A DNA stretch of 64,000 bases from a virus. Shown here one piece after another: positions 11,654-64,000 of the stretch. A program made the translations under genes and the position numbers. Below the pieces are notes generated by a model, which had not been told where the DNA came from, did no database searches, and saw only the letters and a list, made by a program, of their open reading frames with translations. Numbering within the stretch: the first letter of the stretch is position 1; each line of letters begins with the position of its first letter. The stretch lies in IMG/VR virus record IMGVR_UViG_3300042923_001459, positions 1-64,000 of that record; one strand, written 5' to 3'.

Positions 11654-12118
11654 TCAATCAGTGTGTTGTTTTGCAATTTTATAAAGTCTACTAATAGACA
11701 CACTTGCCGTTTTGCCAGGCTCTACATTTAATTTCTTTTCATGCATTTCTTCATCCCACGGACCGTCGTCCCCGACATCTGACGCAACATAAGCTTTTAT
11801 TTTATCTTTACCAGCTTTTTGGAATCCCAATGTGCGATGATATCCATCAGCCACCTGATAACGACCAGTTGATTGTTTAACAAGTACTACTGGATCCATC
11901 TTTTGACCATCTTGAACAGCTTTTGCTATACCATTAACCTTACCCATATTACGACCACCCGGACGACGTGACATGTTAATGTCTGAGAGCTTTATTGTCT
12001 TTAAACTCCAATTAGCCTTCTTTACCCAACCAAGAACATCCTTCGGATAATGCTCTTTTAATTTATTGTATACTTCACTTTGCAAATCTTTGCTTGACTT
12101 CTTAATCAATCTGCTCAT
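11654..12118 (-). CDS. ParB/Srx N-terminal-domain protein
   Basis: PVVLVK...YQVADGYHR motif. Confidence 0.75.
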   Translation of the reverse strand: MSRLIKKSSKDLQSEVYNKLKEHYPKDVLGWVKKANWSLKTIKLSDINMSRRPGGRNMGKVNGIAKAVQDGQKMDPVVLVKQSTGRYQVADGYHRTLGFQKAGKDKIKAYVASDVGDDGPWDEEMHEKKLNVEPGKTASVSISRLYKIAKQHTD

Positions 12119-12131
12119 TTTAACTTTCCTC

Positions 12132-12626
12132 CTACTTGTTTCTTCTCTTTTGTTCTACTTCACTAATCATTCTTAATATCTTTTTAGCAAACATCTTTTG
12201 TCCCTCATTAATATATCTATCCTCAATGTCAATAGCGCGTTCATTCTTTATGTCAGTTAGTTCTTCTTCAATGAACTTCTTAAACACAGTAAAGTCAAAA
12301 TCGCTTGCTTCTCTTTGTCTAAACATACCTTGAGTTCTTTCAATCTCTTTAAGTATTTTTTCTTCAATATACCTTTCGATATCATCTTCAAAAGGATCTT
12401 CATAGTTTTTAGTTGTCTCAGCATATTTGTCTGTTTCATTACTAACCAAAACAACAGGATTGTTCTCATTATTAATTAAAAATCTATTCAAGAAAAAACC
12501 ATCCTTAGAATAAGCATTATGTAGCATGGAATGCTCTCCCTCAAATGAATTGTTTTTTCTATTGTAAGCATTCAAATAGGTGAACGTCTTACTTACATCG
12601 GATAAAATAATATATGTTTTACGCAA
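12132..12626 (-). CDS. hypothetical protein
   Basis: TTG start after AGGAGG. Confidence 0.7.
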   Translation of the reverse strand: MRKTYIILSDVSKTFTYLNAYNRKNNSFEGEHSMLHNAYSKDGFFLNRFLINNENNPVVLVSNETDKYAETTKNYEDPFEDDIERYIEEKILKEIERTQGMFRQREASDFDFTVFKKFIEEELTDIKNERAIDIEDRYINEGQKMFAKKILRMISEVEQKRRNK

Positions 12627-12692
12627 TCAGATTACCTCCTACACTATTTAAAAAATAGTAAATTAAGTAATCTGAACTATATTACATCAAAC

Positions 12693-20746: not shown

Positions 20747-21595
20747 TTAAGAAATTGTGATTTTTGCGATAGCTAAGCTATTTACTACGGCCAAGCCTAT
20801 TTCTTCGTAAATAACCCACCCAAGGCGTAGCTCTTCTGGTTTGTCGGCTGGGATGACTTGGATATCTTGACGAATTGGCATTACGCCAACGAACTCAGGG
20901 TCAGCCATTACATAAACTACGCCCATTGGAACTTTCTTACTGATAAGGATATCAGCAGTCCAGATGTGTCCAAAAAGACCAGTTTGTAATACTTCGTGTT
21001 GAGTTACTGGATCGAATTCGTTTTGTCCCCATGAACGGATGTCAGCGAACTGAGAAGCGTTCATAACGATTTTAGTAACAACAAGGTCATGCTTTTCGAT
21101 TTCTTGGAAAGCTTTTGTTAAAGCAGTACGTTGTAAACCACCAGTGGATACTGTTACTGGGTTAACTGCAGTTGCTGAAGAATCAAGCAATGCGAAGATT
21201 TCAGCATCTTCAACAGCCATGATATCGGATTTAGCACGTTGTTGAGCACGGTCGATAACATTGAAACGACGCTCTTTAACTTGGCTAAAACGAACTTGTG
21301 GGTATGAAACGATTTCGAAAGTAGGAACTTGAATTCTGTCGCCTTCGATTACTTGATCAGGTACTTGACCACGTTTTGAGATAACGAACGCTTTAGCATC
21401 AACGTCTTTATCGTAAACAGGCAATGCGCCTTGTGGTAATGGATCTACTACTAACAATTTACGTCCTACTCCTTGATAGTCAAGGGATACACGAATTGGG
21501 TTAGCCATAGCTTGAGCTAGAGCAACTCTTCCTTCTTCTGTTTCAAGAGCTTTAGAAATTAAAAATTCTTTTTGATCATTTGTTAATTCACTCAT
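20747..21595 (-). CDS. major capsid protein (HK97 fold)
   Basis: LAQAMANPIRVSLDYQGVGRKLLVVDPLPQG, FEIVSYPQV, GWVIYEEIG pattern (recalled similarity to Bxz1/Myrna-type capsids); strong SD and own terminator. Confidence 0.85.
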   Translation of the reverse strand: MSELTNDQKEFLISKALETEEGRVALAQAMANPIRVSLDYQGVGRKLLVVDPLPQGALPVYDKDVDAKAFVISKRGQVPDQVIEGDRIQVPTFEIVSYPQVRFSQVKERRFNVIDRAQQRAKSDIMAVEDAEIFALLDSSATAVNPVTVSTGGLQRTALTKAFQEIEKHDLVVTKIVMNASQFADIRSWGQNEFDPVTQHEVLQTGLFGHIWTADILISKKVPMGVVYVMADPEFVGVMPIRQDIQVIPADKPEELRLGWVIYEEIGLAVVNSLAIAKITIS

Positions 21596-21622
21596 TTTTG
21601 ACACCTCCATTTTTCCTTTAGA

Positions 21623-22153
21623 TTAGATGAATAGGATAAATCCGATAAAGTCTCCGCCATTAGCAGCAGTTCCTGCGTGTGCATACATGTTACCAGCTGT
21701 GAAAGCACCTACGTGTGTGCAAACACCAAGAGCTTTGTGAGTTGGGTTAGCAACTAAGTCAAGTTTAACTAATTTACCGTTTGCATCAGAAGTAATTTGG
21801 TCACCAACAGCGATTGTAGCTGTAGTAGCTGTAGTACGTGATACTGAAACATAATATTCTCCGCCGCGGAAGTAGAAAGTTGCTTTCAAAGAAGCATTAA
21901 TCATATCTCCCAAATCTTCACGGAATAAACCGATTGCATCTTTACCGCCTGCAGTTGCAAGACCTACTCCGTCTGCTTTTATAGCTGCAAATTTACCAGC
22001 AAGTTCACCTGTTACACCTGTACCGTCATTACCACCAGTAGCAACTATAGCTGCTGAAACGTCATGTGCGCCGTTTAAAGTTCCCTCGTAACCAAGTCTT
22101 ACAAATGGTGTAGAGTTATAAGTAGGACCGAATTTTTTGAATCCACCTGCCAT
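21623..22153 (-). CDS. head decoration/cement protein
   Basis: Gly/Ala-rich 176 aa directly upstream of the MCP; VGDQITSDANGKL...ALGVC. Confidence 0.65.
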   Translation of the reverse strand: MAGGFKKFGPTYNSTPFVRLGYEGTLNGAHDVSAAIVATGGNDGTGVTGELAGKFAAIKADGVGLATAGGKDAIGLFREDLGDMINASLKATFYFRGGEYYVSVSRTTATTATIAVGDQITSDANGKLVKLDLVANPTHKALGVCTHVGAFTAGNMYAHAGTAANGGDFIGFILFI

Positions 22154-25564: not shown

Positions 25565-27070
25565 TTATCTACCAATTCTTAGGTTACTACCTTTTTTTGG
25601 AGTTCCCGACCAGCCCATATCGCTAAATAGATCGGCAAACTTTGCACCAGCATTCATATCTTTATTTGGAATATTAATAGGTGTAGTTAAACCTTGCAAA
25701 TTATTAAAACTTGAAAAATCTAACCCAGTATCAGCCTTTCTATTAATAGCTTTTCTTTCTTGACTGGCTGTGGCTAATTTTCTTGATTCATTACTACCAG
25801 AATTTCCACTAGTTTGTGATGAAAAATCTCCAACATTAGCTCTAAAATTAGATGCTAGACCACCATTTTCAAAGAAAGAAGTATCTCCCATTTCAATTCC
25901 ATCTACAGAACGACCTGGTTTCACTGACTTTTTCATAGCTTCTTTAGTTCTAGCATATTCTTGACCATCTTCAATATCAGAATAATCGTCATCACCAAGA
26001 AGGGCTTCAATTTCAGCGGCGTCAGCAGCGGAAGCTAATTTTGTTCCAAGAATTGCTTGCTTATATGTTTCAAATGCTTGGTCATCCATAGCCATAATTG
26101 CTGCCATTTGTAATTCTACAACTTCTTCAGCTTTACCAAGCATTCCTTTCTTTTGCATAAGATCAATTATTTCACTTGCAGCTTTTTCTTTGATTTTTTG
26201 AATATCAATTTCATTTACTTGAGCTTGCAATTCATTAACCTTTCTTTGCAACTTAACCTTCTCAATGTCAATGTCGCCTTCAACTTCTTCATCTTCACTT
26301 GACTCAGTAGAACTTAAAGCATTATTGATGGTTTGTTCTAATCCACTCTTTGGAAAAGAAGGAGTTTCTAAAGGACTAACACGTTCTTGTACTGGATCAA
26401 CATATGCTTTCTTTAAAAACTTTGAAGCATCCGATAGATTCATACGTTCACGTGTGTTATCATTCCAAACCACAGAAACAATATTACGACCAATAAAAGC
26501 AACCTTACCCTTTAAACCCATTTCTTCATCTTCAACTTGGTCTCCAGCTTGAAAAGTATCGGTTTGTGTAGGTTTTGTTTCTTCTACCTTTAGTTCATCT
26601 AAACTAAATCTTCCATTGGGGCTAGTTCTATCAATTGCTTCTTCTTGATTAATTTGCTCGTAAAAATCTTGGGCGGTTTCTTTGATTTTATTAACCTCAT
26701 CTTCACGAGGATTGTTTGGTAAAGCATATGTTTCAGGGCTCAAATCCATTTTATCGTAAATTTGAGGTTTGTTCTTAATTCTATAAGAACGTTGTCTATG
26801 ATCTTGAACAACTGCAATAGGATCAAATGTAACTACGGGAGTATTTTGAACTAACGGATTAGAATTATTAATTGTAACTTCTGGTTGAACGTTGTAAAGT
26901 TCTTCGTTGTTCTTGTTATCATCCGGATCGTTAGCATGATAACCAACTCTCTTGTCTTCATTTGGATATTGATAGTCCCCTTCTTGTTTTCCATCAAAAG
27001 GATAAGTGTGTGCATATTCTTGCTCAGTTTGTCTTGCGACTTTTTGTCTTGCATCAATTCTATTACTCAC
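25565..27070 (-). CDS. putative head scaffolding/internal protein
   Basis: Acidic, coiled-coil 501 aa between protease and capsid genes. Confidence 0.5.
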   Translation of the reverse strand: MSNRIDARQKVARQTEQEYAHTYPFDGKQEGDYQYPNEDKRVGYHANDPDDNKNNEELYNVQPEVTINNSNPLVQNTPVVTFDPIAVVQDHRQRSYRIKNKPQIYDKMDLSPETYALPNNPREDEVNKIKETAQDFYEQINQEEAIDRTSPNGRFSLDELKVEETKPTQTDTFQAGDQVEDEEMGLKGKVAFIGRNIVSVVWNDNTRERMNLSDASKFLKKAYVDPVQERVSPLETPSFPKSGLEQTINNALSSTESSEDEEVEGDIDIEKVKLQRKVNELQAQVNEIDIQKIKEKAASEIIDLMQKKGMLGKAEEVVELQMAAIMAMDDQAFETYKQAILGTKLASAADAAEIEALLGDDDYSDIEDGQEYARTKEAMKKSVKPGRSVDGIEMGDTSFFENGGLASNFRANVGDFSSQTSGNSGSNESRKLATASQERKAINRKADTGLDFSSFNNLQGLTTPINIPNKDMNAGAKFADLFSDMGWSGTPKKGSNLRIGR

Positions 27071-27102: not shown

Positions 27103-27912
27103 TTAAATTCTATTATTATCAAAATCTTTGTCAGACTTTTCAACTTTTTCTTGATCTTCATCATCTTTTTGTTTAAGTCTAGACTTAGGTTGCTCATGCT
27201 GTTCGTGTCCTTCAGGTTTTGCTGGAGGATGTGCAGGAATTGGAGCATGTGGAGATGGAGAATTTGGAAGAGCTGGTACAGCTTCTGGAGCTTCTGGCTT
27301 TTCCGGACCAGGTGATTGTGGAGCTTCACTTGGTGATTTTGGTGTATCTATTTTGTCTTCAAGACTATCTCCGTTACCTTCAGGTTTTTGTTCTTCCTTT
27401 GGTTCAGGATTCTTGTTTTCATCAGTGACTTCTTGTTGGCGTTGATATATAGCATTAATGTCCATGTTTTCAATGTCAAAAACAACATCATAAATTGATT
27501 GTGCAGATGTTTCAAGATTTTTCTTTTTACCTTGAATCATTTCAGTTAACGCAGGATCGTTTTTCATTACTCGAGAAGCTTGATCAACAAAGAACTTGTA
27601 ATCTTCAATAGATTTTAAAACATCTCTACCTTTATCACTAATTTGGTCTAATTGTGATTGAAACATATTAATTGGCATCATTGCTATTTTTTTAAGACGA
27701 GTATTTTTAGTCATAGTTACCACCTGTTTCTTTTCTTCTTTTTTAACTAAACGTTCAACTGTTTTTTCATTCATCATTTTTGAATAAGACTGTTCGTCAC
27801 TATCCTTAAATGTATCATCATGTTGATCTGGAAAAGAAGGATAAGCAGGAGTAGTTTTTAAAACTAACTCCCTTACATCCGGATTTTCATCATTAGCAAT
27901 TAATCTTTTCAT
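27103..27912 (-). CDS. hypothetical head-region protein (Pro-rich tail)
   Basis: MKRLIA start, internal TRLKKIA. Confidence 0.7.
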   Translation of the reverse strand: MKRLIANDENPDVRELVLKTTPAYPSFPDQHDDTFKDSDEQSYSKMMNEKTVERLVKKEEKKQVVTMTKNTRLKKIAMMPINMFQSQLDQISDKGRDVLKSIEDYKFFVDQASRVMKNDPALTEMIQGKKKNLETSAQSIYDVVFDIENMDINAIYQRQQEVTDENKNPEPKEEQKPEGNGDSLEDKIDTPKSPSEAPQSPGPEKPEAPEAVPALPNSPSPHAPIPAHPPAKPEGHEQHEQPKSRLKQKDDEDQEKVEKSDKDFDNNRI

Positions 27913-27914
27913 AA

Positions 27915-28814
27915 TTAACTCCAAGGTAGATTATTAAGTTGATCTTTGAATGATTTAAACTCAACACCTTCATGGCGTCTGTTCTTCTCACTTGCGACCT
28001 TTAATAATGCTGCTTCATACGGGTTACTTGTAGTCATTTTAGCAACTCTAGGAGCACCTTTAGAAGCTACTTTTTCTAAAATTTTAGCTTGCTTATCAGC
28101 ACCTTGACTAACGAAACTGATTTCAAAGAATTCAATTTCTCTATTATCTTCAAATACTGGTTTGTTATCAATTTCTCTACCTTTTGCTGAAATAATGTGA
28201 TCACAGAAATCTTCTTCTGTAATAGCTTCGTTTTTGCAAACGGAGCAAATTGACTTTCCACAACGGCATCCCATAGATACGTCTGTAATGTAGCCCATTT
28301 CTATGCCCCTAGTTAACTCTGGAAAAGCCTTTTTATCGACAGCAATAAGTAATTCTACAAATTTACCACGTTCATTCCAGATAGAGTCTAAAATAATACC
28401 TCTAGCTTCTTCAACGTTTTCGTTTTGATGATCAACGAAAGCAGCTTTACCAATGAATGTTTTGTAAGTTTTTTTCAATTCATCGTAAGAGAAAAAATCT
28501 CCATTATCATTTGCGCCTCTGATTTGTTTACCATATTTTGCTAGATTATCCATAAGTGTTTCCATTGGAACCAATTCAGCATATCCATTATCATGTTCAA
28601 TAACGTTACCGGCAGATACCGCTCTAACTCTAACATATAGAAAGTCATCTTCTTTTGGAGCAATTTTTACAACTTTGGAAGCTGTTTTGACCATATTCAA
28701 TGTATTAGATCTATTCAAAACTGACAAATCTGGTCTTTTATTTGGCTCCAATGAAACTTTTGCAACCGAATCACTATATCCTGCAATTTTTACAGGTAGC
28801 GTATATTTAATCAT
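27915..28814 (-). CDS. prohead (capsid maturation) protease, with Zn-ribbon insert
   Basis: NDNGDFF, FVDH, DVSMGC, CSVC...CDH, FFEISFV...AD; position between portal and MCP. Confidence 0.75.
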   Translation of the reverse strand: MIKYTLPVKIAGYSDSVAKVSLEPNKRPDLSVLNRSNTLNMVKTASKVVKIAPKEDDFLYVRVRAVSAGNVIEHDNGYAELVPMETLMDNLAKYGKQIRGANDNGDFFSYDELKKTYKTFIGKAAFVDHQNENVEEARGIILDSIWNERGKFVELLIAVDKKAFPELTRGIEMGYITDVSMGCRCGKSICSVCKNEAITEEDFCDHIISAKGREIDNKPVFEDNREIEFFEISFVSQGADKQAKILEKVASKGAPRVAKMTTSNPYEAALLKVASEKNRRHEGVEFKSFKDQLNNLPWS

Positions 28815-28920: not shown

Positions 28921-29940
28921 TTATTTAGACGAGTTCTTTTTAATTAGTCTTTTATTCATTGTATTAGCAACGTTACTACTTTGCAATTCTTGTTTGATGC
29001 TTTCGAAAAACTGATCAACATTTTGTCCATATGTCTTGAGTGAATCTATTGAATAACCATCAAGAACAATCCTAATGTTTTGTTCTGCATCAATCATTTT
29101 TTGATAGTTATCTTTTTTAAATATTTTAGCTTCTGGCTCATTAAGATAAGCATTAAAATCATTATCATTTCCAAATATAGAGTCTAAAGATTTTAATGGA
29201 ATGTAATAGTTAACATTAGGACCATCAATTTTGATTCTAAGATAATTAGTGATTAATTTGTCAAAAGCAGCACCTTGAAAAACTTTTCTAGATACTTCGT
29301 CTAACGCTGCTTTAAATATAGTTAGTGAGGTATTTGAAACTAAACCATTATCATCAACAGTGACACCTTTTTCTCTTAAACCAGCTATTAATTCTGGAGT
29401 TTTGTTGTTTAAATTCTCTCTGTTATTTATGTTGTAGTAACTTTCATTCCATTCCGACTCTGTTGTTTCACCGGAGATAAGCTTTGAAACTTCCGGAAAT
29501 ACTCCCTTTTCATCTACCGCTCTTTTAAAAGTTTGCTGTAAATCATAATTTGCAAAATCAGCTCGAACTGGCATCCAATAACTGGAATTTTTCCCCCAAT
29601 TTTGATTGTAGTAATTTAAAAAATTCTTAAATAATACTGCAGCAGCCATGGTTTTTCTTTTTTCAGGTAAATTAAAATAAAGTTGATCATTAACATTAAC
29701 GATATTTACATCCAAAACTTTATCTTCTTCTTCATAACCTTGATTTTCTATAATATCAATTGTTTCTTCTTTACTCAAATCAGCAGAACTACAAGCTGAT
29801 TTTATATCCGTGATTTCTCCAACCAACCACATAACTGGTTCATTTGGAGATAGCTCATCGTCATAGACTCCAACCTTTAAATTACCACCGGAAAATTCTA
29901 CCTTACTTTGAAGCTTTGCAAGTCTCTTAAAAAACGACAT
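28921..29940 (-). CDS. hypothetical protein with divergent copy of the GNAT-like repeat
   Basis: LFKNFLNYYNQNW...PVRADFAN...FKRAVDEKGVFPE resembles the repeat core LYKKFGEIY...PVxxxFxNP...FRKAVxxGWxPE. Confidence 0.6.
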   Translation of the reverse strand: MSFFKRLAKLQSKVEFSGGNLKVGVYDDELSPNEPVMWLVGEITDIKSACSSADLSKEETIDIIENQGYEEEDKVLDVNIVNVNDQLYFNLPEKRKTMAAAVLFKNFLNYYNQNWGKNSSYWMPVRADFANYDLQQTFKRAVDEKGVFPEVSKLISGETTESEWNESYYNINNRENLNNKTPELIAGLREKGVTVDDNGLVSNTSLTIFKAALDEVSRKVFQGAAFDKLITNYLRIKIDGPNVNYYIPLKSLDSIFGNDNDFNAYLNEPEAKIFKKDNYQKMIDAEQNIRIVLDGYSIDSLKTYGQNVDQFFESIKQELQSSNVANTMNKRLIKKNSSK

Positions 29941-30378: not shown

Positions 30379-30687
30379 CTAGTCTTTTTTTTTAGCAACT
30401 AAAATACCTTTTGTTTTTAAAAAATCTTGAGCTGCCTTAAGAAGAGCTCCAAAATCAACATTGTCTCCCTCAATTGAACCTAATGCTCCTTCAGCAAGTG
30501 CATCTGCAAGAACATGAGTTACGGAGTTTGATGGAGAAATAGGTAATGCAGCAATTAACTGTTTAGCGAGCAAAAATGCATCAATCTTATCCTCATTTGG
30601 ATTTTGTGATGGGTTTGAAACCATCTTCTCAATTTTAACATTAATATAAGGATCTGAACCATTAGCAATTTTTTTTAATCTACTCAA
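30379..30687 (-). CDS. hypothetical head-region protein
   Basis: Starts MSRLKKIA after AGGAGGAG. Confidence 0.75.
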   Translation of the reverse strand: MSRLKKIANGSDPYINVKIEKMVSNPSQNPNEDKIDAFLLAKQLIAALPISPSNSVTHVLADALAEGALGSIEGDNVDFGALLKAAQDFLKTKGILVAKKKD

Positions 30688-31065: not shown

Positions 31066-32616
31066 TTAGAAAAATTCAACTGAATTAAAAATATTCTCCT
31101 TGATATAGTCAAACACACTTTTGTCTATTGATTTCAATTTATTTGGTTGATTTACATATGCTATAGTAGATTCAATTAAATAATCTTCTGCAGTATCTTG
31201 AGCCAGATAACTTATAAATGGATCTTGAAATACTGCAATACCAGTACCAATGTGTTTAGAATTTACTTTTTCAGTATATCTATTTTTAACCCATTCGGTA
31301 ACTGTAATCTTATCCCCAACAATTTTTCTAACAAGCATGTTCTCAATTAGTTGAGCATCGAAAGACATTGGAGAAACATAGTAAATGTTATCATAATCAA
31401 ATGACGCTATTTTAAAACGAAGTTTATCTTGTGCAATACAAGCTTCGTTATTAGCTTTAAACTCATTTTCATCTTTTGATAAATAGTGAGTCTTTACAGA
31501 TTGAAACCAATCATCTACATCTGTAATGTTATCGACAAATACAAAAGTTGTATCACTCATAAATTGCTTTGCATAAATTTGAAATTTCTTAATGAGCTTA
31601 ATAACTCTGTATTCCATCTCAATAGGTACATTTTTAAATTCAAAATTAGAAATCTTGAAATCAATATGCGTGTGTATTTCTTTATTGAGAAATGTTGATT
31701 TATGTTTCATGAATGGAGAAGTTTCTACGTGAGTATTAACTTCAGCCAATATACTTAAATCTGTAATTTGATTTCTATAGCTAATTACTGGGTCAATAGA
31801 TAATTTACAAAATGAATGATTAGTACCACCATTAACACCATAGTCGGATATTGAATCACTCAGGCTTGTAATTTTACCCGACCTAGCATTACAAATGGGA
31901 CAACACAGAGATTCATCTTCAGATATAAATACTACAGCATCAATACCAAGATTTTTAAACTCCTCAATTTGAGCTCTTCTAAATAACTGAATAATTTCTC
32001 TAGCTATTGCATCCATAAATTCATCAAATACTCCAGAAAAAGAATTCTCAACTACCTTAATAACTCCATTCATTTCTTCATCGGACAACTCTTGCTTACT
32101 ATATTCAAAATGAGTATAATCTTCATCACCATCTAAATTCCACTTTCCTTGGATTTTTTTAGAAGTTATTCTTTCAACTAGATAATTAACAATAGCATTA
32201 TCGAATTGAAGGGTGAGTTGTGTTAATTTATTTGACTTATAAAGATTAATGAATTGCTTGTCATTACTAGTAAAAGAGTATTTTTCACCATGATTTGGTT
32301 GTTGTTTTGCTAACTTTAGTTTCTTTCTAGTAATTAGTTTACCGCTATAGTACACACCTTCAGCATAGTAATCCATTAGAGAAATTATAGTTTGAACAAA
32401 ATCTCCCATTTCTTTTTCAATTATATTTCTCATAAAATTATTGCTAGATATAAGAGGTGCCGAAAGCACCTCTTTTTTAATTCTATCTTGAATGAACCCT
32501 AAAGTTTTTTCAAAACATTCTTTTGCTTCTTCATCGATAGACAAAATATATTTTTTAGCCAATTCACTCACCTGCATCTTCAACAACAATTCTCTCCAAC
32601 CTTCTTCAACAGCCAT
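31066..32616 (-). CDS. MuF/gp7-like head morphogenesis protein with C-terminal extension
   Basis: Adjacent to portal; CCPICNARSGK...HSFCK motif. Confidence 0.6.
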   Translation of the reverse strand: MAVEEGWRELLLKMQVSELAKKYILSIDEEAKECFEKTLGFIQDRIKKEVLSAPLISSNNFMRNIIEKEMGDFVQTIISLMDYYAEGVYYSGKLITRKKLKLAKQQPNHGEKYSFTSNDKQFINLYKSNKLTQLTLQFDNAIVNYLVERITSKKIQGKWNLDGDEDYTHFEYSKQELSDEEMNGVIKVVENSFSGVFDEFMDAIAREIIQLFRRAQIEEFKNLGIDAVVFISEDESLCCPICNARSGKITSLSDSISDYGVNGGTNHSFCKLSIDPVISYRNQITDLSILAEVNTHVETSPFMKHKSTFLNKEIHTHIDFKISNFEFKNVPIEMEYRVIKLIKKFQIYAKQFMSDTTFVFVDNITDVDDWFQSVKTHYLSKDENEFKANNEACIAQDKLRFKIASFDYDNIYYVSPMSFDAQLIENMLVRKIVGDKITVTEWVKNRYTEKVNSKHIGTGIAVFQDPFISYLAQDTAEDYLIESTIAYVNQPNKLKSIDKSVFDYIKENIFNSVEFF

Positions 32617-34736: not shown

Positions 34737-35003
34737 TTATTTGTTTTTTGCTTTTAATTTGTGTTTTTTCAAACCATGATCAATTGAGTTGTGTAACATT
34801 TCATAATGTTCACTTTTATCATGTCCCTTACGACCTTTGATTCCATCAATATGACCACCATTTTCATGAAAATGATCAATAATATCTGCAAAGTGGTCTT
34901 GCTCAAGTCTTAAGCCTGAACGTCTAGTTACCAAATAACCGATTAGTTTTTCTAGTTCGCTTTTTGCTGCATAAGCAGCACTTTTTGCCATTAAACGTTT
35001 CAT
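34737..35003 (-). CDS. hypothetical His/Lys-rich protein
   Basis: MKRLMAKSA start after GGAG. Confidence 0.65.
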   Translation of the reverse strand: MKRLMAKSAAYAAKSELEKLIGYLVTRRSGLRLEQDHFADIIDHFHENGGHIDGIKGRKGHDKSEHYEMLHNSIDHGLKKHKLKAKNK

Positions 35004-41194: not shown

Positions 41195-41227
41195 ATTCTC
41201 AATTGCATTAGCAGTTACTTTTTTTTT
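41155..41227 (-). other. putative programmed -1 ribosomal frameshift signal
   Basis: In-frame A_AAA_AAG then TAA; 9 nt later ATGCAATTGAGA pairs with TCTCAGTTGCAT (11 Watson-Crick + 1 GU). Confidence 0.65.
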
Positions 41228-42339
41228 AAGCGATTTGTTACTGCATTTGCTTTATAAACGTTGAATGGTCCAGTTTCATATGAACTTGGAGAAACTCCAC
41301 CGGAACTAGGAGAATCGGATCTCATTTGAGTTGTAGAATCATATCCGCCCATTCCACCGTCATTTGGCTTACCAACTGGATCTTGATTACCACTATCCAT
41401 CTTTTCCATTTGATCTAAAGCTTCATCAGAAAGTTGAATGTCTTTGAACTCTTCAAATCCAATAGTAGGTTTATCCAAAGTAACATCAATTAGAGCTGAA
41501 GCATAATCATCTGGGAAAATTTGTTTGAAGTAATCTAACATACCCATGGCTTCTGCTTTTTTAACAATTATGTTAGATTTTTCTAATTCCGTTACTTCAT
41601 CAAACATTGCTTTAGCAACCTTAGAAGTGGGAAAGATTTTATTGAGTTCAGCTAAGCGCGAAATGATAGAACCTTTAGATAACTTAGAAATTTTTGTAAA
41701 TACCTTGATTTTCGAAGCATATCTAGGAGTTTCATCAGTTAGCGTTGGAGTTACTTCATATCCCCAACCTTTAAGAATTTCTGCAATTTGTTTTTTCATT
41801 TCATTTGTGGTTTTATTCATTGTAAAACCATCATAGAAGTTTTGAATCGGACCGTCTACTTGACTCCATAAAGTTAAAATCTCTTTTGCAAGATTCTCTG
41901 GTGTGTAAGTGATGTCTTGAACTTCTTTAGTGGCAACTCTTTCTGGTCTTCTACCAACAATCAACATTAAACCTTCCTTAATTGGTTGTTTTGCTAAATC
42001 ACTATTTAGTTCAGCGATTTTACTAGCTTGGTTTTCATGACCAAAATACTTTTTAGCGATACTTGCTAAAGTTTCGCCTTTTGTTGTTTGATGCAAAACA
42101 TTTCTATCAGCAAAATATCTCATAGTATACGGCTCCATTTCATACCCCTTATTGTAATCATTAATTGAAGGATCGGTGAGAGACGGGATGGACGGGTCAA
42201 TTAGACCGTGGTCATTTTTGACTCCGCCATCATCTTGCCAGTTGAGGTCTGACGTTCCATACTCATTGTTCTCTTCTACATTTAGAGTATAATCTAGGGG
42301 TTTAGATTTATTATTATTGAATTTTTTAATCCTACTCAC
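41215..42339 (-). CDS. LysM-domain protein
   Basis: HQTTKGETLASIAKKYFG...IAELN...IKEGLMLIV. Confidence 0.75.
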   Translation of the reverse strand: MSRIKKFNNNKSKPLDYTLNVEENNEYGTSDLNWQDDGGVKNDHGLIDPSIPSLTDPSINDYNKGYEMEPYTMRYFADRNVLHQTTKGETLASIAKKYFGHENQASKIAELNSDLAKQPIKEGLMLIVGRRPERVATKEVQDITYTPENLAKEILTLWSQVDGPIQNFYDGFTMNKTTNEMKKQIAEILKGWGYEVTPTLTDETPRYASKIKVFTKISKLSKGSIISRLAELNKIFPTSKVAKAMFDEVTELEKSNIIVKKAEAMGMLDYFKQIFPDDYASALIDVTLDKPTIGFEEFKDIQLSDEALDQMEKMDSGNQDPVGKPNDGGMGGYDSTTQMRSDSPSSGGVSPSSYETGPFNVYKANAVTNRLKKK

Positions 42340-43959: not shown

Positions 43960-45180
43960 CTATTTTGGTGTAATTTGTGAAAACTGCCAGTTGTCCGGTA
44001 CAAAATACTGTCTTGCAACTCTTTGTATATCTTCTTTTGTTACTGCTTCGATACCACTGAGATAATCGTCAGGTTCAGTGGATGTTTCATCTATAATAGC
44101 ATTTCCGATGTAACTATTGATTGATGATGGTTTCTCAAGATTGATAATGTGAGAACCGCGAGTATATGCTATAGCGCGTTTCAATTCAATATCACTTACA
44201 GGTTCATTTCTTAAACGTTCGAATTCTTCAATAACAGTATCCTTAACTGCTTCAATCTTGCTTGCATCTAAACCAGTATAACCAAGAATCATTCCAGAAT
44301 CGCGAAGCGCATAATAACTAACACGAACTGTGTAAGCTAAACCACGTTTTTCTCTAATAAGTTGATATAATCTTGAAGAAGAACTGCCGCCTAAAATAAC
44401 ACATGCAATATCCATAGCGTAATAATCAGAACTATTAATCGATGGACCAAATAAACCCCAAGCAAAGTGAGCTTGTTCAATGCTTCTTTCAATCTCTATC
44501 GTGTTTGAATCTAAAATATCAGGTTCGAATTCTTCTTTTTTAAATTCATTAGGATTTTCTTGAAAGTCTTTTGTGTATTCTTCCATAAATTTATTGATAG
44601 CTTCATCATCTATCTTGCCAGTTGCTACAACAAATATATTGTTAGGTTGGTAAAATTTATTCTTGAAATCAATTAAATCTTGTCTTGATATCTCAGCAAC
44701 TTGTTTTGGTGTTCCACCAACTAATTGTCTGCTTGGAAAACTCTTATGCATTGCTGTAAAAAGCATGTCTGTAACATGTGAAGAAGTATCATCTGAGTAC
44801 ATCTTGAGTTCTTCTTGAATCACCGTTCGTTCCAATTCGACTTCTTCTTCAGGAATAGTAGAATGAAATATGATGTCAGATATTACATCTGCTGCTGTTT
44901 TCCAATTTTCCGCTGGCACTGTAGCAAAGTACCTAGTGTGTTGAAAACTTGTCTCAGCATTAATGTAACCGCCTATTGATTCAATTTCTTCCATAATTTG
45001 CTGTGAATTGCGTGAATCCGTTCCTTTAAATACCATGTGTTCAATGAAATGAGCGATACCAAATCTATCTGTTTCATCGTATGAACCAACTTTTACATAA
45101 ATACTAAATGTCATTGTTTTTGCAGACTCGATTTTTTCTGTATAAACATCGAGACCATTTGGAAGTGTTTTCTTTTGCAA
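43960..45180 (-). CDS. M16 family zinc peptidase
   Basis: GIAHFIEHMVFKGT, INAETS, ERTVIQEE, SSRLYQLIREKRGLAY. Confidence 0.92.
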   Translation of the reverse strand: MQKKTLPNGLDVYTEKIESAKTMTFSIYVKVGSYDETDRFGIAHFIEHMVFKGTDSRNSQQIMEEIESIGGYINAETSFQHTRYFATVPAENWKTAADVISDIIFHSTIPEEEVELERTVIQEELKMYSDDTSSHVTDMLFTAMHKSFPSRQLVGGTPKQVAEISRQDLIDFKNKFYQPNNIFVVATGKIDDEAINKFMEEYTKDFQENPNEFKKEEFEPDILDSNTIEIERSIEQAHFAWGLFGPSINSSDYYAMDIACVILGGSSSSRLYQLIREKRGLAYTVRVSYYALRDSGMILGYTGLDASKIEAVKDTVIEEFERLRNEPVSDIELKRAIAYTRGSHIINLEKPSSINSYIGNAIIDETSTEPDDYLSGIEAVTKEDIQRVARQYFVPDNWQFSQITPK

Positions 45181-47511: not shown

Positions 47512-49179
47512 TTAAACTCTATACATTCTTCCAGTTGTAGGTCTTGGCATTCTACTTTTTCCACCAAATTCAGCTGCAAAATTAGCTAACGCATCAGAAC
47601 AACAAGCATCATCATGTCCACCATTTGGAGCTTCAATTCTTTTATTAACTGTTTGACGAACTTCCATCTCTAAATCTTTCCATTCACCAATCATTTTATG
47701 ATAAAAACCACCTAAATCTCTATTGCCAGTTTTATTAATTACATCTTTAGAAGGATATTTGAACCTTCCAACTTCTATATCATGCTTTATTTTTGCGAAC
47801 ATAATATTTTTCATATTCATACCAGAACGAGTATAGGAATCAGAAGCATTAAATGTGATACCTTCTAATTGTCTTAACCCATCTTGATCTCTAAGAATAT
47901 CAACAATTGGTCTACCTACACCAGTAAAATCAGCAAAAATTGACTCTACTGGAAATTTAGGTCTTGGTCCGCCAAACAATTTTAAAATTTCTAATCTTTG
48001 AGTATTAAAGCTCTCACCATGCATCTCCATAGCAAATACCTTTTCTCTTAATCCATTTGGTTGAACTCTCAATACTGAAATATGAGTATAATCGGCACCT
48101 GATGCGGCAGAACCTGCAAAGTCAATACCTGCAACGTATTTTTCTCCATAGTTGCCACTTTCTTGCCATTCGTGTTCTCCAGAGATCAATGTATCCCATT
48201 CCGATGTACTTAGGAATTGGCCAGCTCCATCAACAAATTCAAGCATATATTGTGTCTTAAAATCCTCTACTGACATTTCTCCTTCAGTCCAAACTTCTGG
48301 ATTTTTAGGGAAATATTGTTGCTTTAAAGGCTTAGGCATCAAACGAAGAACGTAAGCAGAGTATGGTCTCATTTCTTCTGGATTTTTGTAATCTGGAAGA
48401 TAAGTAGCATCCAAAGCCCATAATTGAGGACACTCTGTCCAGTCTTTTCTGATTTGAACAAATCCTTTTGGATTTTTAATTGAATCATATGCAATACCAG
48501 GTTGAAATGATTCCCAGAAATGATTACGAAATTTAGGTGTACCAATTTTAATAATTTTAGCATTTGTTGCACCACCCATCGGAACAATACGCTCAGATAC
48601 GGTGTAATTGGAAATTTTTTGTGCTTCATCTAATACAATTATATCAAATGTCAAACCCTCAATATTTGATTGGTCGGAACCAGAAACTGCCATTACATAA
48701 GAGCCATTGCTAAGTTCAATTTTACCTTTTGTACATTTTACAAGTTTATTGTTGAGTTTTTCTTCATTCATTTGAAAGAAGATAGCTGTACGTCCAACAT
48801 TAAGTTCTGCTTGCTGAATACGAGGGGTAAAGATACCAATTCTCATGTTTGGATAATTATCTAATAGGTAACCGGTAAATGATGCAATTGATTCTGTTTT
48901 ACCAGCTTGTCGAGCCATGAGGGCTGCAACAGAACGAATTTTAGGATTACATACAGCTCTAATTAACTCTACTTGATTAGCATGTAATTTCTGTTTATTT
49001 GGTGGCAAATGAGCTCTAAGAACTCTATGACAATATTCAACTGGATCCATTTTTGTAAGCATTTTTTTAAATATATAGCCACCTAAATCTTCACCATGAA
49101 TTTTATTTTGTTTCATAGCATTAAGTTGACCTTGAATAGCATTTGTATCACTTTTAAGTTTCGATATGTCGAAGAACAA
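47512..49179 (-). CDS. terminase large subunit
   Basis: Walker A ARQAGKT, Walker B IIVLDEAQ, IGTP, nuclease GIDFA and HDD. Confidence 0.9.
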   Translation of the reverse strand: MFFDISKLKSDTNAIQGQLNAMKQNKIHGEDLGGYIFKKMLTKMDPVEYCHRVLRAHLPPNKQKLHANQVELIRAVCNPKIRSVAALMARQAGKTESIASFTGYLLDNYPNMRIGIFTPRIQQAELNVGRTAIFFQMNEEKLNNKLVKCTKGKIELSNGSYVMAVSGSDQSNIEGLTFDIIVLDEAQKISNYTVSERIVPMGGATNAKIIKIGTPKFRNHFWESFQPGIAYDSIKNPKGFVQIRKDWTECPQLWALDATYLPDYKNPEEMRPYSAYVLRLMPKPLKQQYFPKNPEVWTEGEMSVEDFKTQYMLEFVDGAGQFLSTSEWDTLISGEHEWQESGNYGEKYVAGIDFAGSAASGADYTHISVLRVQPNGLREKVFAMEMHGESFNTQRLEILKLFGGPRPKFPVESIFADFTGVGRPIVDILRDQDGLRQLEGITFNASDSYTRSGMNMKNIMFAKIKHDIEVGRFKYPSKDVINKTGNRDLGGFYHKMIGEWKDLEMEVRQTVNKRIEAPNGGHDDACCSDALANFAAEFGGKSRMPRPTTGRMYRV

Positions 49180-59187: not shown

Positions 59188-61743
59188 TTATACAACTGAT
59201 TTGTTCTTCTGCCTAAAGTCTGTTAACTTCGGTAAGAGCTCGTTATACCATTTTTCCTCATCTTGATGATTATAATCTCTCTTAGTATTGTTGAGCGTAA
59301 TTTCGGGGAACCAACCCATAGCAACAGCCTTGTTAAATGTATATTCTGCTACTGGGTTTATGAATGTTCTACCAAGTCTCCAATTTTGATATTGAGAATT
59401 GTATTCTTCTGAAAATGTTTTATATAAGAGCATAGCAACTCCATTTTTTCTATATTGCTCTTGTACTTCAACATAATTAATGTAGATGTATTCATGTTCA
59501 GGATAGATTTCATACTTCATATCTCCAAGCATTTCTCCATCTCTAAAGATCTCAATTTTACGTCCTCTATTATTAATTTCTTTTTTCTGAACATCAATTG
59601 GACCAACTGCAACTTCGGATGCAAATTTACGCAATCTGTAATCATTACCTTTAGCCCAATATTCAGGACCTTTATACTGTTCTGGCAACTTATTACGTAA
59701 GTCATTCCAAACTTCGTCTGGGTTTGTTTTAAGGCTTTTATTATATCGATCTCTCTTCACATACTTATCATCTATTGAAGTTTCATTTATCCAACCTAAA
59801 CTTACAGCTTTTCTAAATGCATATTCAGCTATTGGATTAATATAGTATCTAGAAACCGGCCAATCACTAAAGTTAGAATTGTAGATTTCACCAAACTTTT
59901 TGTAAAGTAGTTGTCCAACACCATAACTTCTATATTCTTCCTTTACTTGGACTTCATCTACGTGAATAATATTGCTGCCAGGTGGTAAATCCCTAAGACT
60001 TCTATTGTTTTCGTGAATATATTTAGGGTTTTCAACATTGTAAAAAGCTGAAAAATACATATTTCCAATATTAATACCATTAGATAATTTAGCGTTTATT
60101 GAATAGTCAACTTGTTTTTCGGCACCAACATAATCTCCATCTTCTTCTGACTCAGTATAAGATAGTACAATGTTTCTCATATCAATTTCTGACAAATCAG
60201 CTAATTTAAATAGTTTTTTCAATCTAGAACTACCTCTATACATTGGAGGAAGTTTCTTTCTCAAATCCTTCCAAAGCGTTTTATCTTTTTTATCATAATT
60301 GCGCTTTAATTTATCATCATTTAAAGCCCATCCAGAAATCCACCCTAATGAAATAGCTTTACGATAAGAATATTCAGCTATAGGGTTATGAAAATCTACA
60401 GAAACTGGGAGACGATCAAATTGTTGTTGATAAATTTCACCAAATTTCTGAAGAAGTAATTGACCAATACCAAGGCTTTGATATTGTTCAGTAACTTTAA
60501 TTAAATCGATATGAACTTTATCTCTTCCTGCATAGGCACTATTTGTATCATAAACGTAAGCTGTAAATCTTATGCTTCCCACTTCTTCACCATTAAGTTG
60601 TGCATAAACCATGTGGGTGTCCATTGTTAAGCCATTGTCATAAGTTGAACTACCAATAGAACCTCCATCTTCAAGTATTATGCCAGACCTAATATCGGTC
60701 ACGCTTAGATCTGAAGCTAGTTTACGTAAATCTTTTTTCATACTAGCCTCCGGCCCTCTAACATGTTCTGGAAGTTTTTGTCTTAAATCATTCCAAAGCG
60801 CTTTATTTTTTGTACTATAGTCACGAATTATCTTTTCTTCAGAAAGAGCCATATCTGGAACCCAGCCAAGAGATACTGCTTTTCTAAAGGAATATTCAGC
60901 AACAGGATTTACAAATTGTCTACCAACTGCCCAACCATTAAATTGTTCAGTGTACATCTCACCAAATTTTTTGTAAAGCATTTGGCCTACGCCAGCTCCT
61001 TCAAAATATTGTTGCACATACAAAAACGAAACATATAATTCTGGTTCAGTATAATCTTTAGCTTCTTCTTTTGGAACATACTTTGAAAAATCCAAATAAC
61101 CAATTTGACTTCCAGCGTACATAGCGGAAATTTCATAACTAGATCTAAGTGTTTGTCCCCAGTCTTTTTCTTCACTAGGACCAGAAACTTCAAATTGAAT
61201 ACCTTGTCGTAAGTCAATTTTTTCATCATCACTTATGGCAATTTTTTTCAATCTTGAAAATCTACTAGCATGTAAATTTTCTGGTAATTTTTGTTTTAAG
61301 TCATTCCATTGTTGCTCTTTTTTATCATCATAACTTCTAGTTGTTCTCTCTGGAGTATAAGCTTGATTTGGTACCCAACCTTGATCTACTGCTTTTTTAA
61401 AAGAATATTCAGCAATGGGACTCTCAAAGTGTCTTTCAACTTCCCAGTCCATAAAGTTTTGGCTATACACTTCACCAAATTTTTTGTAAAGCATACCACT
61501 AATTCCAGTTCCACGATACTCAGATTCAACTTTGATATAAGCAAGGTATAGAATATCTTCCTCGTTGCCATTTTCATCTAGTTGCGAAACTTGATTGAAA
61601 TCTAAAGCGCCAATTTCGCCTCCATTGTACATAGCTTCAATTCTATGCATAGTCATGTAGTATCCATCTTCAGGATCACTATCACTACCAACATTAGGTG
61701 AGTAATCAATTCTAACTTTTCTAATGTCAAACTGATCAGACAT
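59188..61743 (-). CDS. polyprotein of five tandem GNAT-like domains
   Basis: Five repeats with motif A (YRGTGIS, FEGAGVG, YQSLGIG, YRSYGVG, YRKNGVA) followed by L[YL]xxF.E.Y...[NS]P[IV]AEY.[FY].KA[VI]..GW. Confidence 0.85.
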   Translation of the reverse strand: MSDQFDIRKVRIDYSPNVGSDSDPEDGYYMTMHRIEAMYNGGEIGALDFNQVSQLDENGNEEDILYLAYIKVESEYRGTGISGMLYKKFGEVYSQNFMDWEVERHFESPIAEYSFKKAVDQGWVPNQAYTPERTTRSYDDKKEQQWNDLKQKLPENLHASRFSRLKKIAISDDEKIDLRQGIQFEVSGPSEEKDWGQTLRSSYEISAMYAGSQIGYLDFSKYVPKEEAKDYTEPELYVSFLYVQQYFEGAGVGQMLYKKFGEMYTEQFNGWAVGRQFVNPVAEYSFRKAVSLGWVPDMALSEEKIIRDYSTKNKALWNDLRQKLPEHVRGPEASMKKDLRKLASDLSVTDIRSGIILEDGGSIGSSTYDNGLTMDTHMVYAQLNGEEVGSIRFTAYVYDTNSAYAGRDKVHIDLIKVTEQYQSLGIGQLLLQKFGEIYQQQFDRLPVSVDFHNPIAEYSYRKAISLGWISGWALNDDKLKRNYDKKDKTLWKDLRKKLPPMYRGSSRLKKLFKLADLSEIDMRNIVLSYTESEEDGDYVGAEKQVDYSINAKLSNGINIGNMYFSAFYNVENPKYIHENNRSLRDLPPGSNIIHVDEVQVKEEYRSYGVGQLLYKKFGEIYNSNFSDWPVSRYYINPIAEYAFRKAVSLGWINETSIDDKYVKRDRYNKSLKTNPDEVWNDLRNKLPEQYKGPEYWAKGNDYRLRKFASEVAVGPIDVQKKEINNRGRKIEIFRDGEMLGDMKYEIYPEHEYIYINYVEVQEQYRKNGVAMLLYKTFSEEYNSQYQNWRLGRTFINPVAEYTFNKAVAMGWFPEITLNNTKRDYNHQDEEKWYNELLPKLTDFRQKNKSVV

Positions 61744-61762
61744 TTATTACACCCTCTTTTGA

Positions 61763-62251
61763 TTAAGAATATTTAAGTTTTCTTTTTAGTCTTTTAGCAC
61801 CTCTATATTGTTCAGGCACCTTTTCTCTTAAATCTTGCCATTGTTGTTTTTGTTGATCGTCGTAATTTCTATTTACGTTGTTTTCATCTAAGGCTGAAGA
61901 TGGTATCAATCCACCAGAAATTAAATTTCTAAATGCTAATTCAAATTCTGGATCGTGAAAGTTTAAAATTACCTTCCAACCCGTGTAATTAGCTTCAAAT
62001 TCCTTACCAAATTCATCCATTAACATTTCTTCTAAATCATAATCTCTGTATTTTTCACTAATAAGACATTCATCTACGGATAAAACACCTTTAGATGCTT
62101 CTGTAAATTCAACGTGACCAACTTCTTTGCCGTTATAGATAGACGAAATTCTATGATCTTTTGAACCAAAAGTACCTTGATGATCAAAATAAATTTGAGC
62201 TTGAAACTGTTCTATGTTTGACGGTGCTGCAACCTTTCTAAGTTTACTCAT
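61763..62251 (-). CDS. single degenerate GNAT-like repeat
   Basis: MSKLRKVAA start; YRDYDLE replaces motif A; WQDLREKVPEQYRG. Confidence 0.8.
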   Translation of the reverse strand: MSKLRKVAAPSNIEQFQAQIYFDHQGTFGSKDHRISSIYNGKEVGHVEFTEASKGVLSVDECLISEKYRDYDLEEMLMDEFGKEFEANYTGWKVILNFHDPEFELAFRNLISGGLIPSSALDENNVNRNYDDQQKQQWQDLREKVPEQYRGAKRLKRKLKYS

Positions 62252-64000
62252 TTTTATCACCCTTATCCCTATAATCTTTTCTTTCAATACTTTTCTTAAA
62301 CTTCTTTTTCTCTTTTGCTGGTAACCAATCAAATAAATCTTTAGCAATTTGTTTTTCATGTTCATCATATTGACGCGCTATTAAATCATCATTATATGCA
62401 GTTTCAGGGATATTTCCCTTATCGACTTCTTCTTTAAATACATATTCTGCTATAGGGTTTGCAAAAACTTGAGCAACTGGCCAATCCATAAAATCTTGCT
62501 TGTAAATTTCTCCAAACTTCTCATATAATTTCTTGCCAATTCCATAACCTCTGTACTCACTATTCACAAGAACGTTGTTTACATATAACATTTCATCATA
62601 ATGCTTGTTTTCAAGAGAAGTATGAACATCTTTAGCTGTTACATTATGAAATTCTGAAAAGTGCATGTAACCAATTTGAGAACCATAATAATCACAATAA
62701 ATTTCGTGATCAACTACATGATCTGCTCCATTCTTGTTTTCTTCTCTTGGGATATTTTGAACATCAATTTCTATGTGATTCCATTCAATGTCTGGTTTAT
62801 CATCTTTTTTTTCTTCACCATCATATGAGTCAGAAACATAATTAACTGCATTTTCTTTTTTGAGCAATCTTTTTGTCAATTTAGCCCAAGTCTCAGGGCC
62901 CTTTAAATTGTCTGGAAGTTTATTTCTTAAATCGGTTATTGTTTGTGAATCATAATTTTTATAATCCCTAGTGATCATTGGTTCAGTTAATGCTGATTCT
63001 GGCACAAAACCTTTTGAAACTGAATTTCTAAAAGCGTATTCAGCTACTGGATTCATAAAATGCCTTTCAACAGGCCAACCATTAAACTTTTCACTATAAA
63101 TTTCTCCAAATTTTTTGTAAATTTCATACGCTAGACCTTGATTTTGATATTTTGGATCAACCTCAAGTTGAATAATTTCAATATATTTTCCATTAGTATC
63201 AGCAGTGAAGGCTAAGAATCCAGCGTGATCACCATTTACAAGCAAAGTAATGTCATTTGTTGAACTAGTTCCCCAATCTTCAAAGAAATAGGTTGTTTCA
63301 ATATTTTGTTCCTCTGATTTTCTAATCATACGAAGTCTTTTAATTTTTGACCATGTTTCAGGACCTTGAACATGTTCTGGTAACTTATTGCGTAAATCTT
63401 TTGCTAGATTTCTTTCAGTATCGGTATATACTCTTGCAATGTCATCTTCTTGTAATGCTTCTTGGGGAACCCAACCTAATCCAACAGCTTTTCTAAATGA
63501 ATATTCTGCTATAGGGTTAATAAAAAAACGTTTAACTTTTGTGCCCATATATTTTTGTGAGTAAATATTTCCAAATTCTTTATACAATAATTGCCCAATT
63601 CCTAAATTTCGATATTTATCATCAACGTCTACTGAATCAATTTCAATATGATTATCGCTTCCGACTATTTTAAAGTCCATTTCTCCAACTTTTTGTCCAT
63701 TCAATTTAGCGGTAATGTAATTATGATAATTCCAATTGGAGAATTCAAATTGTATATTTCTTAAATCAACTTTTTCTTCTTCAGCTGTTTTTAGAAGTTT
63801 AATTTTTTTCAGTCTTGATTGAATTTCTGGACCACGATATTGTTCTGGCAATTTTTGTCTTAAATCTTGCCAAAGTTGTGTTCTATTATCGTTTTCATCT
63901 AGTGGTTTATTGTATCCTCTATTGATATATTGTTCAGTTAACGCATTTTCACTAATTAATCCATTTGCAACCGCTTTTCTAAATGAATATTCTGCGACTG
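62244..64000 (-). CDS. polyprotein of at least 4 tandem GNAT-like domains, partial (start beyond window)
   Basis: Frame open to 64000 (VAEYSFRKAVANG...); motif A YRNLGIG, YQNQGLA, YRGYGIG. Confidence 0.85.
   Translation of the reverse strand, partial: VAEYSFRKAVANGLISENALTEQYINRGYNKPLDENDNRTQLWQDLRQKLPEQYRGPEIQSRLKKIKLLKTAEEEKVDLRNIQFEFSNWNYHNYITAKLNGQKVGEMDFKIVGSDNHIEIDSVDVDDKYRNLGIGQLLYKEFGNIYSQKYMGTKVKRFFINPIAEYSFRKAVGLGWVPQEALQEDDIARVYTDTERNLAKDLRNKLPEHVQGPETWSKIKRLRMIRKSEEQNIETTYFFEDWGTSSTNDITLLVNGDHAGFLAFTADTNGKYIEIIQLEVDPKYQNQGLAYEIYKKFGEIYSEKFNGWPVERHFMNPVAEYAFRNSVSKGFVPESALTEPMITRDYKNYDSQTITDLRNKLPDNLKGPETWAKLTKRLLKKENAVNYVSDSYDGEEKKDDKPDIEWNHIEIDVQNIPREENKNGADHVVDHEIYCDYYGSQIGYMHFSEFHNVTAKDVHTSLENKHYDEMLYVNNVLVNSEYRGYGIGKKLYEKFGEIYKQDFMDWPVAQVFANPIAEYVFKEEVDKGNIPETAYNDDLIARQYDEHEKQIAKDLFDWLPAKEKKKFKKSIERKDYRDKGDKNE

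Follow-up and report, generated by a model that had tools for sequence, protein, structure and literature searches.

The head module

The stretch of DNA analyzed here (the window: positions 1 to 64,000 of IMG/VR virus record IMGVR_UViG_3300042923_001459) represents the head module of a megaphage resembling phage G and comes from an incomplete contig of 108.6 kb. Its GC content is about 32%, nearly every gene is on the minus strand, and the gene order matches that of gp1-gp39 in phage G. According to a 2024 preprint, phage G is the largest cultured phage, and no function is known for more than 65% of its genes. The subject of this analysis is a short basic peptide with the consensus M-[KS]-R-L-[KI]-K-x-[AS], hereafter the tag, which unrelated proteins carry after their start codons, at their extreme C-termini and in the linkers of GNAT polyproteins. 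A first-pass annotation had listed N- and C-terminal instances among head-region proteins of the window, all of which were recovered (Table 1). No tag is found on the capsid, decoration, portal or terminase proteins.

Table 1. Genes and tagged sites of the window, followed by the YHGT paralogues of phage G (last row, phage G coordinates). Designations of the form gp refer to phage G genes.
Feature	Coordinates	Strand	Tagged sites and remarks
Terminase, gp1 orthologue	47512-49179		by synteny
M16 zinc peptidase, gp2 orthologue	43960-45180	-	by synteny
LysM-containing protein, gp5 orthologue	41215-42339	-	N-terminal SRIKKF 42319-42339; C-terminal NRLKKK 41218-41235
925-aa protein, gp7 orthologue	37991-40768		
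gp9 orthologue	37004-37417	-	GTG start; SRLRKLKKS 37388-37417, spacer, TKIAS 37343-37357, conserved domain
gp10 orthologue	36748-36984	-	TRLKKIA 36952-36972, Gly-rich spacer; C-terminal SRLKK-stop 36748-36765
gp12 orthologue	35019-35390	-	GRLKKS 35361-35378, five residues past Met
gp13 orthologue	34737-35003	-	N-terminal MKRLMAKSA 34977-35003
Portal, gp14 orthologue	32616-34598		
gp17 orthologue	30379-30687	-	TTG start; N-terminal SRLKKIA 30664-30687
~340-aa protein	28921-29940	-	N-terminal tag-like MSFFKRLAK 29914-29940; C-terminal KRLIKK 28936-28953
Prohead protease, gp19 orthologue	27915-28814	-	80% identity to gp19
Scaffold-like protein, gp20 orthologue	27103-27912 or 27103-27924	-	MKRLIA 27895-27912; TRLKKIA 27682-27702; SRLKQK 27166-27183
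501-aa protein, gp21 orthologue	25565-27070		
Decoration protein, gp26 orthologue	21623-22153		by synteny
Major capsid protein, gp27 orthologue	20747-21610	-	by synteny; untagged
154-aa protein	11654-12118	-	N-terminal MSRLIKKS 12095-12118, ribosome-binding site AGGAGG upstream; SRLYKIA near C-terminus 11672-11692
Five-unit GNAT polyprotein	59188-61743	-	linkers SRLKKIA 61237-61257, DLRKLAS 60712-60732, SRLKKLFKLA 60199-60228, YRLRKFAS 59617-59640
Single GNAT-like unit	61763-62251	-	N-terminal MSKLRKVAA 62225-62251; C-terminal KRLKRKLKYS 61766-61795
Four-unit GNAT polyprotein	62244-64000, on contig to 64406	-	linker tags 63783-63818, 63315-63350, 62847-62876
YHGT paralogues (phage G)	70929-71849, 81748-82587, 163172-163849, 178671-179204, 401815-402312, 446709-447356		

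The tag as a terminal peptide signal

The tag is strongly enriched at protein termini. The core string RLKK occurs nine times in the 31,175 open reading frame residues of the contig, against about 0.7 expected, and all nine copies fall within 27-64 kb. Counts for phage G were made on the entire 497-kb genome, joined from loci L005-L029. There, the pattern [STK]R[LI]x[KR] is found 31 times within the first 15 residues of proteins, compared with 2.1 in shuffled sequences (standard deviation 1.35); the corresponding numbers for the contig are 8 and 0.44, so that N-terminal enrichment amounts to 15-18-fold. Within the last 15 residues, the pattern occurs 3 times in the contig (0.36 shuffled) and 7 times in phage G (1.5 shuffled). 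Protein interiors contain 8 copies in the contig, compared with 3.8 in shuffles, and 25 in phage G, where the shuffled value of 20.6 indicates no enrichment.

The first-pass annotation had named Lys-rich composition as one explanation that would undo its proposal, and with a GC content near 32% and Lys-rich proteins, chance deserves consideration. When residues of phage G proteins were permuted separately at each N-terminal position, a procedure that preserves the Lys-rich bias of protein starts, 3.35 matches were obtained on average (standard deviation 1.84), with a maximum of 11 in 1000 permutations, compared with the 31 observed. Similarly, a degenerate DNA pattern for start-K-R-L-x-K-K has 10 matches in phage G, and its reversed control has none. 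Since terminal enrichment survives these controls, composition cannot explain the tag. A nucleic acid signal, such as a translation enhancer or an A-rich start region, is no better placed. Tag codons follow genome-wide synonymous usage, with both Ser families (AGY and TCN), TTA, TTG and CTT for Leu, and AGA and CGT for Arg. Because synonymous codons vary within tags, the constraint acts on the peptide. Copies at C-termini and in linkers, together with conservation among orthologues, likewise oppose all of these explanations, which we regard as practically negligible. A signal peptide was also rejected, by eye: polar or charged residues follow the tags, and no hydrophobic stretch was seen.

A residue profile was compiled from 48 N-terminal tags with ribosome-binding site support in the two genomes, using the looser pattern [STKGNQ]R[LI]x[KRA]. 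Shine-Dalgarno-like sequences precede the tagged starts. Taking the Arg, present in all 48, as position 0, position -1 is K in 26, S in 14 and T in 5, and position +1 is L in 42 and I in 6. Position +2 is more variable (K 16, I 10, R 5, M 4, L 4), position +3 is again strongly basic (K 38, R 6), and position +4 is K in 18, I in 7, L in 6 and T in 4. Position +5, which lies outside the search pattern, is Ala in 15 and Ser in 14, so that 29 of 48 tags have one or the other there, compared with a background of 12%. Glu is not among the most frequent residues from -1 to +5 and first appears at +6. Since 31 of the 48 tags directly follow Met and conservation ends at +5, the unit is an eight-residue leader, M-[KS]-R-L-x-K-x-[AS]. 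No description of such a tag was found in the literature, and a search with the motif string returned nothing relevant.

Conservation in phage G and other relatives

In phage G, gp5 (at both ends), gp9, gp10, gp12, gp13, gp17 and gp20 have kept the tag, and gp38 likewise begins with it. The 154-aa protein of the window is found at the genome position of gp38; BLAST gave no match between the two, and the window protein is 59.5% identical to a tagged 138-aa protein of another relative (L003). About ten relatives from several environments retain the tag (L003, L030/L033, L031, L034, L036 and L038-L041). Their proteases are 51-86% identical to the window protease, and the tagged proteins themselves have diverged to 30-60% identity. 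In the gp20 orthologue, the second tag, TRLKKIA, is the one that lines up with the tag at the N-terminus of gp20 from phage G and other relatives, and both terminal peptides of the ~340-aa protein are kept in its L030 orthologue. Conservation of this kind, together with the enrichment and its controls, confirms the tag as a terminus-specific signal on unrelated proteins.

Less regular are the internal K-x-A-S sites, which the first-pass annotation had placed in the same code. Those in the 925-aa and 271-aa proteins are present as described, but they are poorly conserved in orthologues, and the KLAS, KIAS and KTAA copies of the large structural proteins are for the most part not retained. The same applies to most K-x-A-S or hydrophobic-x-K-x-A sites within gp4, gp7, gp11, gp14, gp15 and gp21, and internal sites were excluded as evidence for this reason.

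The suggestion that the tag is limited to head-region proteins was too narrow. With the strict pattern and checked starts, 27 tagged proteins are dispersed over the 497 kb of phage G, and the looser pattern gives 36, or about 4-5% of its genes. The tagged enzymes include a ParB_N protein (3e-9), a SLOG protein (3e-6) and a GNAT (2.5e-5). Six are paralogues that share a YHGT...G...Y motif (loci L008, L009, L013, L025 and L027); they have weak matches to the ADP-ribosyltransferase (ART) superfamily, namely Tpt1 (0.011), DarT (0.12), PARP (0.012) and the diphtheria-toxin C domain (0.027), and we treat their ART-like nature as a lead. In phage G, TTG or GTG replaces ATG as the start codon of about half of the tagged genes, and it may be that expression of the cargo is kept deliberately low. 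The 2024 preprint also reports many replication enzymes in phage G "particles", and for this reason it cannot separate cargo from contaminants. In the supplement to that preprint, each head-module protein searched for appears once, in the annotation sheet; a proteome table was not found there.

The prohead protease

The window protease is labeled as a head maturation protease by PHROGs. Neither Pfam nor a profile search of PDB sequences yielded a usable match, and the enzyme was thus placed by PHROGs and fold comparison only. Its AlphaFold2 (AF2) model matches the varicella-zoster virus assemblin (1vzv, Z 9.9), the pseudorabies virus assemblin (4v08, Z 9.7) and T4 gp21 (5jbl_B, Z 9.6, with 127 residues aligned at a root-mean-square deviation of 2.8), and the top 33 rows of the comparison all belong to the assemblin and gp21 families. 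The model thus supports a herpesvirus assemblin/T4 gp21 fold, in line with the kinship to herpes assemblin that the first-pass annotation had stated. Across an alignment of 24 sequences, His129 and Ser180 never vary, and at least 90% of the sequences have His206.

Three K-x-A-S motifs had been noted around the protease core, and this arrangement is both real and conserved. They occupy residues 43-46, 248-251 and 272-275 (28677-28688, 28062-28073 and 27990-28001). K43-x-A45 and A250(-S) bracket the core in the 24 sequences, including fusion proteins at 30-36% identity. Proteases of the phage G clade have a second K-[VI]-A-S, followed by a conserved tail ending in NLPWS (27918-27932 in the window), and the 964-aa protease fusion in L004 ends similarly in NLPWT. 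The K-x-[AS] that the tag has at +3 to +5 is equal to these protease-edge motifs. A strict assemblin-like rule, with cleavage between Ala and Ser, seems not to hold for the tags because the presumed cut is usually followed by a residue other than Ser: among the 48 tags it is Asn in 9, Ser in 7 and Lys in 6.

Directly after the catalytic Ser, the protease has a Cys-rich insert, CxC...CxxC...CxH (28190-28270, residues 183-206). C190, C193 and C204 are invariant in the 24 sequences, and His206 is the residue conserved in at least 90%. This looks like a zinc site inside an assemblin-fold enzyme.

GNAT polyproteins

The three genes at the end of the window contain five, one and four GNAT units, as defined by Pfam. 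All seven linkers within the two multi-unit genes hold the tag or its K-x-A/S half. In an AF2 model of unit 2 with its flanks, the domain blocks have pLDDT values of 89-97 and the tag-bearing flanks values from below 50 to 62, which supports a location of the tags in flexible linkers between folded GNAT units. Phage G encodes a homologous three-unit GNAT polyprotein with DLRK-x-A linkers, as well as single GNAT units, one with an N-terminal tag and one untagged. With these linkers, phage G and the relatives, the tag extends beyond the sites that were originally listed.

Proposed docking and cleavage

Of the readings considered, the most likely is that the tag is a two-part leader, consisting of an R-L-K-K docking element and a K-x-A/S cut site, and that it corresponds in function, though not in motif, to the capsid-targeting sequence of T4. 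We give this reading roughly an even chance of being correct. The R-L-K-K half would be a basic docking element that brings unrelated proteins into the assembling prohead. The docked cargo would include the scaffold-like gp20, small head-module proteins and GNATs, and in phage G the ParB_N, SLOG and ART-like proteins. Cutting would take place at the K-x-[AS] half, a putative site for the assemblin/gp21-fold prohead protease. This enzyme would remove the leader, separate the units of the GNAT polyproteins, and shed the extensions at its own N- and C-termini; the cargo would remain in the head and probably enter the host along with the DNA.

Evidence for two elements comes from gp9. In seven of eight sequences, gp9 orthologues have the tag, a spacer of 0-14 residues, a [TIL]-[KR]-x-A-[SA] site and the conserved domain, in that order; because of this spacer, the tag and the K-x-A site are separable. 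The gp9 propeptide site and the flanks of the protease core share hydrophobic-x-K-x-A with the tag, and every GNAT junction is tagged. These features would also be accounted for if the tag were an extended prohead protease site, with a hydrophobic residue at P5, Lys at P3 and Ala or Ser at P1, that labels the junctions of propeptides and polyproteins and has no role in targeting. Such a reading, which is possible but unlikely, does not explain why the Arg-Leu part is conserved even where a spacer parts it from K-x-A, and the removal of 7-8 N-terminal residues from about 30 unrelated proteins would give no selectable benefit.

Tags at extreme C-termini are a further difficulty for cleavage alone, and they are the best argument for a docking role. 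They are found in four of four gp5 orthologues and four of eight gp10 orthologues, in the ~340-aa protein and its L030 orthologue, in two of the phage G YHGT paralogues, and in the single GNAT unit. Tags adjacent to a stop codon leave no downstream product to release, which suggests a role in docking beyond cleavage.

These same tags are consistent with a docking peptide that is never cut, whether it loads cargo as in encapsulins or anchors proteins to the portal, scaffold or packaged DNA. The tag is basic, is present at either terminus and is often followed by a Gly/Ser/Asp-rich spacer. The shell that a loader could bind is a minimal HK97-fold major capsid protein of about 285 aa, which is 87-94% identical in full-length relatives, compared with 25-79% for their other head proteins; the constraint on this protein is unusually strong. 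We consider an uncleaved peptide rather unlikely, as it accounts neither for the conserved Ala/Ser at +5, equal to the protease-edge motifs, nor for a tag at each polyprotein junction, where one chain would not need so many.

Other candidate processing enzymes

The serine protease had been taken as the only candidate enzyme, and a second one in the head module was overlooked. The gp2 orthologue is an M16 (insulinase/mitochondrial processing peptidase-type) zinc peptidase, with M16 N- and C-domains at 1.7e-32 and 7.3e-39 and an intact HFIEH at 45037-45051. It is located between the terminase and the head genes and is an unusual enzyme for a head module, and a search of viral contigs for M16 peptidases matched phage G only. 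Mitochondrial processing peptidase-type M16 enzymes cleave basic N-terminal leaders, and it is conceivable that this peptidase reads and removes the tag as its mitochondrial counterpart does basic presequences. Its domain scores, intact HxxEH motif and conservation beside the terminase gene in phage G are in keeping with that role. However, such enzymes place Arg at P2 or P3, and here the Arg is five residues before the conserved Ala/Ser, or P6 of the putative cut. Moreover, the serine protease has conserved K-x-A motifs at its own edges. Removal by the M16 enzyme thus seems quite improbable.

Alternatively, the tag could be a ClpX-type degron, similar to the basic signal at the C-terminus of MuA, and could set the time at which tagged proteins are degraded. 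Phage G encodes ClpP, and a preprint reports both ClpP and ClpX in particle preparations; the strictly terminal position of the tag would also suit a degron. Internal copies in linkers are unexplained by this model. Other points against it are the concentration of the tag on head-module proteins, including the scaffold-like one, and the K-x-A shared with the prohead protease edges. ClpXP was not seen on the present contig, which is incomplete. We regard a degron as very improbable. None of the four alternatives (cleavage only, docking only, M16 and ClpX) accounts equally for all features.

The two-part leader itself faces several objections. The residue after the presumed cut varies, several tags end in K-K-S or without Ala, and the internal K-x-A-S sites of gp7, gp4 and gp11 are not conserved. 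The loss of about eight residues has no obvious benefit unless release from a receptor is needed. The tag is absent in marine relatives at 30-36% protease identity, in which the protease is fused to a protein of more than 1000 aa. Finally, the tag could instead be read by the M16 peptidase or, in phage G, by ClpXP.

If the two-part leader is nevertheless correct, it could belong to a large cargo-delivery system, in which the basic peptide loads about 4-5% of the proteome and an assemblin-fold protease with Ala at P1 frees the cargo for injection. The receptor may be the prohead protease itself or the highly conserved minimal HK97 shell. This wider proposal is tentative, and we hold it to be possible rather than probable.

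Comparison with known systems

The closest analogy is with phage T4, where a capsid targeting sequence is carried by the internal proteins IPI, IPII and IPIII and by Alt and is removed by gp21, as the cited accounts describe (Mullaney and Black 1996; PMC5694885, PMC10052503). In both cases, a short common N-terminal leader is found on unrelated proteins, some of them enzymes, and T4 Alt and the internal proteins present the same pattern as the tagged phage G enzymes. The end of the leader fits the motif of the phage's own head protease, although here this is a motif match from which specificity is predicted. The proteases share a fold, and scaffold or core proteins are also substrates, as is predicted for gp20. 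However, the motif here is the basic R-L-K-K-x-A/S rather than hydrophobic-x-Glu, and the tags do not have the Leu/Ile-x-Glu of T4. The tag is shorter, at eight residues, and also occurs at C-termini and as a polyprotein linker; its scale is larger, with some 4-5% of phage G genes tagged. Instead of a gp23-like capsid protein there is a minimal one of HK97 type, and packaging is here a prediction. The basic motif with its presumed Ala/Ser P1 rule, found in the lineage of the cultured phage G, is distinct from the T4 motif.

Herpesvirus proteases offer a second comparison. Assemblin is cut at an R-site and an M-site between Ala and Ser, with a strict requirement for Ser, and a C-terminal tail binds the capsid. 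The phage enzyme has the same fold, with His, Ser and His in the same order, and on either side of its catalytic domain the presumed P1 is a conserved Ala. In distant relatives, the protease is fused to a long C-terminal region with a conserved LPW-S/T tail, and the phage protease is reminiscent of the R-site, M-site and tail layout established for herpesvirus protease precursors. Unlike in assemblin, the presumed P1' varies between S, A, N, K and C, Lys is conserved at the presumed P3, and the Cys-rich insert is present beside the catalytic Ser; cleavage in the phage system is presumed from the motifs.

Encapsulin cargo-loading peptides resemble the tag in being short terminal peptides, at either terminus, that are joined by flexible linkers to diverse cargo of an HK97-fold shell, although shell binding is putative here. 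They differ in that the tag is a basic R-L-K-K without a Gly-Ser-Leu type consensus, and in the presence of a maturation protease.

If the tag can be read as an address, about 30 of the phage G genes that lack a known function, and the GNAT arrays of the window, would be nominated as head cargo or injected effectors. The two-part leader, if true, would set out the rule by which a protease lineage joining phage and herpesvirus capsid maturation cuts its substrates, and would extend the herpesvirus-type rule to a phage lineage. It would also provide a short programmable peptide for loading foreign proteins into the very large capsid of the largest cultured phage.

Other features of the head module

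The 501-aa gp21 orthologue is not the major capsid protein, since synteny with gp27 and gp26 assigns the capsid and decoration genes elsewhere, with the capsid gene at 20747-21610. An ESM Atlas search with this 501-aa protein gave no match.

The gp20 orthologue has an additional N-terminal segment of about 70 aa between its first two tags that is not found in relatives, and a Pro-rich insert near its C-terminus. A Met with ribosome-binding site support is located just ahead of the second tag, and two isoforms are possible.

The C-terminal NRLKKK of the gp5 orthologue overlaps a conserved A-rich slippery site. The gene ends CGC TTA AAA AAA AAG TAA (41194-41240 in the window; L001 5820-5900), and phage G has this same hexacodon, down to its rare CGC codon. 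Starting at the hexacodon, an open -1 frame leads into the gp6 orthologue, and the peptide that it encodes is conserved (KKVTANAIENLP... and KKVTADSIEDIP... in the two phages). Judging from the nucleotide sequence, this fits a programmed -1 frameshift that would yield a gp5-gp6 fusion, in which the RLKKK tag would become an internal linker.

Many small zinc-ribbon paralogues with a CPIC...YWKENDRYL signature are encoded between 214 and 19654, none of them tagged. They are present in phage G as well, as gp32, gp34, gp35 and gp37 (L001 26153-28126).

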